Under the pieces are notes generated by a model. The model was not told the origin of the DNA and made no database searches. It saw only the letters and a program-made list of their open reading frames with translations. DNA of 64,000 bases. It comes from an uncultured Roseobacter sp. Its GTDB lineage: Bacteria > Pseudomonadota > Alphaproteobacteria > Rhodobacterales > Rhodobacteraceae. Location: the NCBI RefSeq assembly GCF_947491795.1, contig NZ_CANLKW010000007.1:1915-65914 (forward strand), given 5' to 3'. Position numbers and translations under genes: made by a program. This document shows, in pieces, positions 33,885 to 34,622 of the stretch. Numbering within the stretch: the stretch's first letter is position 1; every line of letters begins with the position of its first letter.

Positions 33885-34622
33885 TCAGCTGTCGCGGTCC
33901 ATCACAGAGAACTGGGCGGCTTTGGCCCCCATGGTGTCCGCTTCGCTTTCCAGACCCGCATCATCATTGACCGGCGCGCCGCCCACTTCGGTGGTCGGTT
34001 TCACGCGGCCCTGCTTTTGCTGGGCCACATGCCAGGCCTCGTGGCCCAGGTGTTTTTCCTGGCCCGGACCGAGGTGAATATCGGTGCCCTGGGCATAGGC
34101 ATGGGCCTGCAGCGCGGCGGGTTTGGCAGAGTTGTAATGCACTTTGACATCATCCATCGCCACACCCGAGAGGCTCTCCACACCGGACTTCAAACCGGCC
34201 GGCATCCCGCCGTCCATCGCCTTGCCCTGGAGCGCTTCTTCCTCTTCCATCCGCTGGGCGGTGTCGGTGAACTTACCCTGCAGTTCTTCTTCTTCCATCC
34301 GCTGCACAGGGTCAGAGGCGAACTTGCCCTGCAGGGCTTCCTCCTCTTCCATGCACTGCGCGGGGGCGTCGATGAATTTGCCTTGCAGTGCCTCTTCCTC
34401 CATCCGTTGCGCGGGGCCGCGTTCGCGGTTCTGCAGCTGTGCCAGACGGCCCGTTGCACTGCTCTGATCCGCGGTGGCCTGGAGCCCGGCAAGCGCCTGT
34501 TCAGGCGCGGTGTCGCGCGTCTGTGTCGTGGCCCTGGCCGCCGGTGCATTGGCCTGGCTGCGTTCGGATGCGAAAATCTGTGCCATATCATCTGTCCTTG
34601 CCGGTGGCTTTCTCTCTAGCAC
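33885..34622 (-). CDS. DUF4157 (zincin-like, HExxH) domain protein with N-terminal EEE-ALQGKF repeats; putative eCIS-associated payload or adaptor
   Basis: MPAGLKSGVESLSGVAMDDVKVHYNSAKPAALQAHAYAQGTDIHLGPGQEKHLGHEAWHVAQQ matches the DUF4157 pattern (..VRVHTD..A..L.A.AFT.G.DI.F..G....LLAHEL.HV.QQ). HEAWH is the HExxH. The start may be ATG 34586. Confidence 0.85.
   Translation of the reverse strand: MLERKPPARTDDMAQIFASERSQANAPAARATTQTRDTAPEQALAGLQATADQSSATGRLAQLQNRERGPAQRMEEEALQGKFIDAPAQCMEEEEALQGKFASDPVQRMEEEELQGKFTDTAQRMEEEEALQGKAMDGGMPAGLKSGVESLSGVAMDDVKVHYNSAKPAALQAHAYAQGTDIHLGPGQEKHLGHEAWHVAQQKQGRVKPTTEVGGAPVNDDAGLESEADTMGAKAAQFSVMDRDS
34222..34415. repeat. Four tandem ~48-54-bp coding repeats inside the DUF4157 gene
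   Basis: Peptide units AQRMEEEALQGKFIDAP / AQCMEEEEALQGKFASDP / VQRMEEEELQGKFTDT / AQRMEEEEALQGKAMDG. Confidence 0.8.

Follow-up and report, generated by a model that had tools for sequence, protein, structure and literature searches.

A stand-alone DUF4157 protein beside a Roseobacter contractile injection system: acidic repeats coupled to DUF4157 and a leader shared with a candidate effector family

The present study concerns a stretch of 64,000 nucleotides (nt) of DNA from an uncultured Roseobacter sp. (RefSeq assembly GCF_947491795.1, contig NZ_CANLKW010000007.1, positions 1,915 to 65,914 of the forward strand), referred to below in its full length as the window, and within it a minus-strand gene for a protein of 233 amino acids (aa) with a DUF4157 domain, encoded beside a contractile injection system of the extracellular type (eCIS). 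The DUF4157 subfamily concerned has two separable N-terminal parts, a modular leader and an acidic repeat array, of which the array is coupled to DUF4157, whereas the leader behaves as a general tag present also in proteins without this domain. The 233-aa protein belongs to the eCIS cargo class as a genuine, conserved DUF4157 protein that has no C-terminal domain (CTD), and it is probably a naturally CTD-less cargo of the Cgo class known from the AlgoCIS system, co-loaded with a candidate effector of 835 aa from the same operon. Among eCIS loci this one is ordinary, the protein being one typical member of a very large family (more than 5000 proteins matched the query), and the part worth following is the family-wide coupling between the repeats and DUF4157. 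The gene and its parts are as follows:

33885 to 34586, minus strand: stand-alone DUF4157 gene (PF13699, eCIS_core), 233 aa from ATG 34586, based on Pfam, the database gene call, AAGGA and MAQIFAS
34422 to 34505, minus strand: leader motif PEQALAGLQATADQSSATGRLAQLQNRE, residues 28–55, based on the AlphaFold2 (AF2) helical hairpin, the leader hidden Markov model (HMM) and hhalign
34209 to 34421, minus strand: four acidic repeat units, φ-QR-MEEE(E)-(A)LQGK-F-x3, residues ~57–126, based on Tandem Repeats Finder, codon comparison, the predicted local distance difference test (pLDDT) and charge
33888 to 34208, minus strand: DUF4157 catalytic core, residues 127–233, based on AF2, conserved residues and the signature of PMC3482391

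Acidic repeats and their coupling to DUF4157

The four tandem acidic units ahead of DUF4157, already described in the original prediction made from the sequence alone, were recovered both by Tandem Repeats Finder (periods of 48 and 54 nt across 34221–34400, scores 126 and 143) and by mapping of the peptide, where the units QRMEEEALQGKFIDAPA, QCMEEEEALQGKFASDPV, QRMEEEELQGKFTDTA and QRMEEEEALQGKAMDG, each of 16–18 aa, occupy nt 34409–34209. In the window protein they follow the pattern QRMEEE(E)(A)LQGK plus 3–6 variable residues, with a net charge of −12 over the repeat segment and a Gln every 8–9 residues. Repeat residues 58–125 exhibit pLDDT values <50 and are thus predicted to be disordered, the AF2 model leaving them undocked on the DUF4157 domain.

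Concerning the coupling, at least two acidic units were present in 33/56 leader-bearing open reading frames (ORFs) with DUF4157 and in 0/19 of those without it (Fisher p=1.7e-6, n=75), this p-value, like the one given below, being indicative only since the locus samples were chosen by query similarity and are phylogenetically dependent. Because these 75 ORFs come from loci picked through DUF4157, a separate search was performed with the repeats only, i.e. with the 71-residue repeat segment against 1.84 billion representative proteins, which yielded 245 matches at E≤0.001. The signature HExxH..Q was found in 128 of the best 150 of these 245 matches; among the remaining 22, there were 21 truncated fragments, 14 of them ending inside the start of DUF4157, so that 149 of the best 150 are DUF4157 proteins or truncated fragments. 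It is on the contrast of 0/19 with 33/56 and on this repeat-only search that the distinction between a DUF4157-coupled repeat module and a general leader tag is based. It should be pointed out here that one full-length repeat protein without DUF4157 does occur among the best 150—the protein P0165 (461 aa)—in which seven acidic repeats run directly into an unrelated CTD, making it a natural ΔDUF4157 variant.

The coupling appears to be undescribed in the searched literature. No relevant paper was retrieved by searching texts for forms of the repeat motif such as LQGKF and EEEPLQ; in the PROCIS preprint the words ‘repeat’ and ‘acidic’ are absent and the only instance of ‘charge’ is unrelated to the N-terminal domain (NTD); and the searched literature, including PMC3482391, makes no mention of a separable leader and acidic-repeat module.

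The acidic unit is found in 120/120 best homologues, in 2–9 copies with a modal spacing of 16 residues, the last copy lying ~80 residues ahead of HExxH, and since it recurs in all of them, the repeats are no chance feature. In the consensus unit φ-Q-R-x-E-E-E-E-x-L-Q-G-K-F, conservation is highest at the Q, in the acidic run and at Q-G-K. The repeat covers Proteobacteria, Bacteroidota, Acidobacteriota and Methanosarcina with 0–16 copies—0–10 across the locus set and up to 16 in the protein P0142—and it is a family-wide module rather than a peculiarity of the window gene. A weak correlation between repeat count and CTD length (rho=0.25) does not tell models of the array apart.

The original prediction also expected the repeat number to vary by slippage, and this holds in part. 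The copies do vary among relatives, numbering 4, 4, 4, 3, 2 and 3 in the close Roseobacter homologues P0001–P0005 and P0007, respectively, and locus L007, likewise some other genomes, carries a near-identical, recent array, of nine copies in L007. The units of the window protein, however, share only 69–79% identity at the DNA level, with 3–7 synonymous codon differences per pair, and with such divergence they are old copies kept through selection on the peptide and not a hot slippage tract.

Leader, catalytic core and family distribution

The leader core L-x-x-LQ-x-x-AD-x-S-x5-L-x-x-LQ lies within an N-terminal region of ~55 aa, for which AF2 predicts, with moderate confidence, a helical hairpin (helices 28–40 and 43–55, pLDDT 76–79). 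The leader HMMs were made from the region 5' of the first repeat only, the window protein being excluded from the Roseobacter-type model. The latter matched four N-termini of the 835-aa protein family with E-values from 6e-8 to 3e-3 (Z=8363), and hhalign aligned the two N-terminal alignments with a probability of 92.6% and E=4.6e-7, pairing DUF4157 leader columns 30–57 with 835-family columns 29–56, that is, at equal distance from the N-terminus. No significant match came out when the 233-aa and 835-aa proteins were compared by pairwise BLASTP (E=11–12); the shared leader is seen only at the family level, by the HMM and profile–profile methods. The leader HMMs also match the N-termini of many DUF4157-less ORFs near DUF4157 genes—four in L047, two in L014 and others in L009, L069, L057, L035 and L064. 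Directly past the leader, all full-length members of the 835-aa family exhibit the junction φ-φ-QR-[AE]-A-V, which resembles the P[AV]QR opening each repeat, and φ-QR is found at the leader/body boundary also in leader-bearing DUF4157-less ORFs of other phyla.

With regard to the gene itself, the ORF 33885–34622 on the minus strand exists as originally predicted, the maximal frame encoding 245 aa from GTG 34622 according to the ORF listing. Its start has been refined to ATG 34586, which is the likely one because an AAGGA ribosome-binding site is positioned 8 nt 5' of it, the protein database entry P0001 is a 233-aa product, and the resulting N-terminus MAQIFAS is kept in Roseobacter homologues.

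The Pfam scan assigned the 245-aa ORF to PF13699 (DUF4157, now ‘eCIS_core’) with 40 bits against a gathering cut-off of 22 (E=4.7e-10), the match spanning aa 140–205 and model positions 2–78 of 79; this confirms the predicted domain, the ORF having no other Pfam match at E≤0.1 and none in NCBIfam. The HEAWH motif is encoded at 34043–34029 on the minus strand, exactly where it had been placed, as part of the longer HEAWHVAQ at 34043–34020, and LESEAD follows at 33953–33936, with E-S-E-A-D (33950–33936) in helix 3. In the core alignment, H182, E183, H186, Q189, Q190 and E213 are invariant, E215, A216 and D217 being at least 90% conserved, and the combination of HExxHxxQ with a downstream Glu, by which membership of the PVC-metallopeptidase is recognised, is invariant in alignments of 64–77 homologues.

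The AF2 model of the core as an isolated domain (pLDDT 86, predicted template modelling score 0.79) comprises helix 11–21, strands 29–31, 44–47 and 50–53, helix 58–72 with HExxH and helix 91–112 with ExEAD. This predicted arrangement of three strands and three helices, with the His residues on helix 2 and the Glu on helix 3, agrees with the published definition of the PVC-metallopeptidase (PMC3482391), a name given to the domain by Zhang et al. together with HHpred matches to zincins (PMC3482391). In the full-length model, too, the core is confident (pLDDT ~95) and the repeats disordered. The protein thus apparently contains a minimal metallopeptidase of ~105 aa in which the HExxHxxQ...E site is intact, its assignment as a zincin resting on motif, predicted topology and literature. 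The 40 aa past the Pfam envelope form the third helix with E-S-E-A-D and bring the protein to its end, leaving no room for a toxin module, and the absence of such a module, as originally proposed, is borne out.

A scan of one genome per species provided 78 loci from Alpha-, Beta- and Gammaproteobacteria, Bacteroidota (including gut Bacteroides), Acidobacteriota, Verrucomicrobiota and Methanosarcina, with DUF4157 cores 47–77% identical to that of the window; in Roseobacter genomes, the identity to the window protein is 56–79% and all catalytic residues are intact. Stand-alone forms account for 16/128 repeat-bearing representatives in the set at 50% identity, most of the representatives having a CTD, and at least 25 species from different phyla have such a stand-alone form, with a tail of 45–62 aa. 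Genes of eCIS are seen in the flanks of 45/76 related loci and of 21/25 stand-alone loci, and, where full 10-kb flanks are available, structural eCIS genes are nearby in 14/15 stand-alone versus 15/30 CTD-bearing cases (p=0.007). The CTD-less forms behave as fixed cluster genes, whereas the toxin-fused ones are often dispersed. A leader-bearing DUF4157-less neighbour was detected at 5/25 stand-alone loci, a lower bound since the leaders are clade-specific.

Some individual loci may be mentioned separately. In Methanosarcina (L052 and L058), a leader of the form MQLQRTIGNRAVGRLL is followed by 5–8 acidic repeats and a DUF4157 core ~50% identical to that of the window, L052 containing five DUF4157 genes in a row; the Rhodobacteraceae locus L012 has four tandem DUF4157 genes, with repeats in the first only.

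Cargo operon, injection system and the readings weighed

The surroundings of the DUF4157 gene comprise:

34638 to 35171, minus strand: 177-aa protein, isoelectric point 4.05, net charge −22, of an 11-member family
35178 to 37685, minus strand: 835-aa candidate effector, lineage-restricted and without a Pfam domain; leader at residues 29–56 (nt 37518–37601), then VLQRAAV
37686 to 37919, no strand: divergent intergenic region of 234 bp between the cargo and eCIS operons, from an alignment of four Roseobacter-group genomes
37920 to 63748, plus strand: eCIS operon, from Pfam and NCBIfam scans, with the gene order as in L001 and L002
62399 to 63748, plus strand: AAA+ ATPase, Afp15-like, from the Pfam/NCBIfam scan

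The minus-strand genes follow in the order 835-aa, 177-aa and DUF4157, with gaps of 6 and 51 nt. This triad is present also in L001 and L005, and the same overall layout is seen in the uncultured Roseobacter genome L001 and in R. denitrificans OCh 114 (L002), where the DUF4157 gene stands alone at the junction (RD1_4211, 226 aa), with no 835/177 pair. The statement of the original prediction that the gene lies next to the eCIS needs some qualification, since Pvc16_N, the first structural eCIS gene, is ~8 kb off and on the other strand; the eCIS operon, however, effectively starts at 37920, as follows from the conserved order of accessory genes in L001 and L002. With a divergent operon and conserved synteny, the linkage is genuine, with the eCIS as well as with the 835-aa gene.

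Only 10 homologues of the 835-aa protein were found among 5.8 billion sequences, those named being from Roseobacter or Rhodovulum and none having a Pfam domain; it has itself no Pfam match (E≤0.1) and two NCBIfam matches far under the cut-off. The 177-aa family has its 11 members on the contigs that also carry the 835-aa family, and no Pfam, NCBIfam or PDB match was obtained for the 177-aa protein, the faint matches to YbjN concerning 2/10 members (best E=0.039); as a lead, this acidic protein may be the chaperone of the 835-aa one or its immunity partner. The adaptor/chaperone families of type VI secretion systems (T6SS)—DUF4123, DUF1795/Eag and DUF2169—are matched by none of the 245-, 177- and 835-aa proteins.

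Based on the above results, the reading of the 233-aa protein as a CTD-less cargo may be outlined as follows. The three minus-strand genes would constitute one cargo operon, divergent from that of the eCIS, and the leader, most likely the loading route of the 233-aa protein, would steer both this and the 835-aa protein via the Afp15-like AAA+ ATPase into the tube lumen; it is by its leader that the otherwise orphan 835-aa protein is nominated as co-cargo. The acidic repeats and DUF4157 would work as a single unit and not as a general loading signal, and the peptidase may afterwards process φ-QR/LQGK linkers in cis or in trans, act in the target cell or do something else. In AlgoCIS, Cgo1 and Cgo2 consist of a disordered NTD, DUF4157 and a CTD, and fill the tube lumen; the NTD is needed for their loading, which the AAA+ protein Alg15 mediates, while ΔCTD and ΔDUF4157 variants still load (bioRxiv 10.64898/2026.05.27.728243). 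The payload role suggested by the original prediction is thus favoured by a Cgo layout minus the CTD, by the loading of engineered ΔCTD Cgo proteins and by the shared leader.

Several points weigh against this reading. Loading of the 233-aa protein into particles, as well as its co-packaging and catalysis, is inferred from sequence, and the protein has been likened to Cgo1 and Cgo2 by their published layout, not by their sequences. The leader link of the window's own 835-aa protein rests on its family, the copy NGLTQMQTAADLSPWRQKSETLQARART being marginal alone (E ~1.4–1.5). Loading in AlgoCIS does not require DUF4157, nor does the toxicity of Cgo1 depend on the HExxH of this domain. Neither the full-length nor the domain-only model had a Foldseek match in the PDB at E≤0.001, and no zincin neighbour was retrieved from the PDB by a search with the single sequence or by a profile search (0 matches). 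To these can be added the dependence among the sampled loci pointed out above.

The alternative surviving best, possible although given clearly less weight, partly overlaps with the cargo reading and takes the protein for a trans-acting releasing peptidase, which recognises φ-QR/LQGK linkers and strips the leader from DUF4157-less cargo, e.g. the 835-aa protein, before, during or after loading, its own tandem repeats being a pseudo-substrate or pro-peptide array. The autoproteolytic release of toxins was indeed proposed for the domain by Zhang et al. (PMC3482391) and the catalytic residues are invariant, but proteolysis is undemonstrated for any DUF4157 in the literature, a point that counts against the cargo reading as well. 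The near confinement of the repeats to DUF4157 proteins and the QR junctions described above—in every 835-family member and at the leader boundary of DUF4157-less ORFs in other phyla—are in its favour, although the residue past QR is not consistently hydrophobic in the non-DUF4157 cargo, and the repeats remain undocked in the low-confidence part of the AF2 model. Similarly, published statistics place DUF4157 next to DUF4157-less toxins, and a chaperone role in-cis or in-trans was suggested by Danov et al. (PMC11297309), yet R. denitrificans has a stand-alone gene without adjacent cargo and a leader-bearing neighbour is detectable at only the 5/25 stand-alone loci. A narrower role, in which the protein would serve the 835-aa one alone as its adaptor or processing peptidase, as also put forward in the original prediction, is unlikely as the core function because R. 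denitrificans keeps the gene without the 835-aa neighbour, and the 5/25 loci are too few to support it; general processing in trans is what is left of it. Slightly more doubtful than the releasing peptidase as such is the extended proposal that the repeats and DUF4157 make up a self-contained leader-release module, the repeats being the pseudo-substrate or cleavage sites of the peptidase itself, with stand-alone copies stripping in trans, once loading or injection is over, the leader of co-packaged DUF4157-less effectors that have this leader and a φ-QR junction, here the 835-aa protein; if true, it would provide a concrete substrate and function for DUF4157, the most eCIS-specific domain of elusive role.

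It is unlikely that the DUF4157 core is itself the effector, i.e. a minimal metallopeptidase toxin for which the leader and repeats would serve delivery only. Such a toxin would go with the cargo-type leader and intact active site, with R. denitrificans having this gene as the sole leader-bearing one seen at the junction, and with the finding that DUF4157 can stand where toxins do (C-terminally, behind RHS repeats or on T6SS proteins), from which a toxin role in some cases has been suggested (PMC3482391). A core 50–77% identical across phyla including archaea and fused to hundreds of different toxins, however, points to a constant delivery module rather than to an arms-race effector; moreover, Cgo1 toxicity does not depend on HExxH and no immunity gene is evident for the 233-aa protein. 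Finally, a decayed polymorphic-toxin remnant that lost its CTD and has no current function, in line with the CTD carried by most repeat-bearing representatives (only 16/128 being stand-alone), is highly improbable in view of the same end point in at least 25 species across phyla, a fixed gene in the Bacteroidales injection systems (L039, L051 and L059), 56–79% identity with intact catalytic residues in Roseobacter genomes, and repeats conserved as peptide despite synonymous divergence.

Recent eCIS papers continue to call the role of DUF4157 elusive, even though eCIS cargo has no better single marker. Three regularities have not been found in the searched literature—the separable leader and repeats, the fixed CTD-less forms and the leader of the 835-aa protein—and they could be of use when loading tags for engineered eCIS are designed. 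The synthetic peptide PVQRMEEEELQGKFTDTAQR and the 835 N-terminal peptide ...PVPVLQRAAVIPYEV would be defined candidate substrates for first DUF4157 protease assays, and R. denitrificans OCh 114, the genome of which is complete, offers a minimal version in RD1_4211.

As for the remaining features of the window, the eCIS operon contains, in addition to the AAA+ ATPase:

37920, plus strand: SBP_bac_3 protein (Pfam/NCBIfam scan)
39209, plus strand: S-adenosylmethionine (SAM) methyltransferase (Pfam/NCBIfam scan)
39967, plus strand: second SBP_bac_3 protein (Pfam/NCBIfam scan)
41682, plus strand: permease-like protein resembling an ABC-permease transmembrane domain (Pfam/NCBIfam scan)
42533, plus strand: Pvc16_N, first structural eCIS gene, with a 244-aa protein next
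43858 to 46200, plus strand: sheath, 780 aa, with a cadherin-like insertion PF16184 at aa 297–398
58522, plus strand: CIS tape-measure (Pfam/NCBIfam scan)

With two gp19 tubes, CIS_tube, a spike and large baseplate proteins between the sheath and the tape-measure on the plus strand, the eCIS is complete-looking. The frames of the SBP, methyltransferase, SBP and permease-like genes overlap or abut on the same strand as the eCIS genes, and these accessory genes (37920–42362) are kept at the eCIS 5' end in L001, L002, L005, L044 and L049; they are unusual eCIS accessories, possibly for sensing or regulation. The cadherin-like sheath insertion PF16184 is present in Roseobacter relatives, too. Within the divergent intergenic region, a 17-nt block ATGAATTGTTTTCTTGC at 37805–37821 is invariant in the four Roseobacter-group genomes against a mean identity of ~52%, and a second conserved block, CAACCCTAAGGCA as read on the minus strand, is close to it, both together being a candidate shared operator or promoter of the eCIS and cargo operons; a simple scan of 33500–38000 for a sigma-70-like promoter found none.

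In the C-terminal part of the 835-aa protein, a Gly/Ala/Ser-rich hydrophobic stretch at residues ~670–720, SITSGALSVSGLGAGIGAAIGMVSTAA, is succeeded by a highly basic tail, which suggests membrane insertion. The CTD of P0142, the protein with 16 repeats, has a segment of similar look for which homology is unsupported; the idea that the 835-aa protein is a homologue of this CTD, split in one case and fused in the other, was rejected (BLASTP E=0.16, no match to the family HMM).

Downstream of the DUF4157 gene, in the convergent region shared with a phytochrome kinase gene (33710–33865), there is an array of GGGTTACC half-sites with ~40–47 bp spacing, including the perfect palindromes AAGGTAACCCA/TGGGTTACCTT at 33764–33785 and AGGGTAACCC-GT-GGGTTACCCT at 33807–33828, the latter followed by a T-run on the plus strand and thus terminator-like; the array could be an element like the repetitive extragenic palindromic ones or a protein-binding array. 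The ranges 24272–28190 and 30997–33570 comprise a bacteriophytochrome gene that abuts the cargo operon, its product combining an HWE histidine kinase with a receiver domain, and, just upstream, type IV secretion genes, among them those for a VirB4/TrbE-like protein (796 aa) and an SLT lytic transglycosylase.

Comparison with known systems

Minigluzincins are HExxH...E peptidases of ~100 residues in which one helix bears HExxH and a following helix the Glu that is the third ligand. The window core is alike in being a very small catalytic core, but no sequence or Foldseek similarity was detected, and the resemblance is a lead only.

DUF4157 is an N-terminal marker of eCIS toxins (PMC8213781, PMC3482391), which agrees with the original prediction; Geller et al. 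list it as an eCIS core domain in 13 phyla (PMC8213781) and Danov et al. found it in 36% of the known eCIS toxin set (PMC11297309). With the PVC-metallopeptidase (PMC3482391), the window protein shares HExxHxxQ...E, the core of three strands and three helices, and the association with eCIS. PVC-type polymorphic toxins (PMC3482391) have a constant N-terminal peptidase and a variable C-terminal toxin, the latter often with an immunity gene; in the window protein the toxin is absent, a convergent intergenic region following downstream, and the leader plus acidic-repeat module is undescribed in that work. The payloads Pnf and Pdp1 of the Photorhabdus virulence cassette (PVC) are similar, by description only, in their short shared N-terminal region and the proposed route via an AAA+ ATPase, Pvc15 (PMC11495950); payloads of this type differ in having no DUF4157, and the window leader is in part predicted to be helical.

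In the Bacteroidales injection systems, the DUF4157 gene is a fixed cluster gene (PMC7394362) encoding a short stand-alone protein, of 182 aa in L039, L051 and L059, with 0–2 acidic units and an end 45 aa past HExxH. Unlike in the window, this gene is at the 3' end, beside those for the ATPase and the tape-measure, and its product has another leader, FVDNR..., and a smaller number of repeats.

The closest parallel in layout is with the AlgoCIS Cgo proteins. The window protein, too, has a largely disordered N-terminal region—putatively the loading one—followed by DUF4157, residues 58–125 with pLDDT <50 lying ahead of the domain, and is encoded beside an eCIS cluster with an Afp15-like AAA+ ATPase. 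In both cases cargo of one system has similar N-termini, here the 233-aa and 835-aa proteins, and an Algoriphagus sp. homologue (L069), located past the tape-measure gene, carries the same repeats (EEEELQMK). The Cgo genes are, however, found at the 3' end of their cluster, whereas the window gene is at the 5' divergent side, and the variable C-terminal effector domain is missing in the window protein, which ends at the peptidase core. Since this end is helix 3 of DUF4157, the 233-aa protein may be regarded as ΔCTD-like rather than as a full member of the Cgo class.

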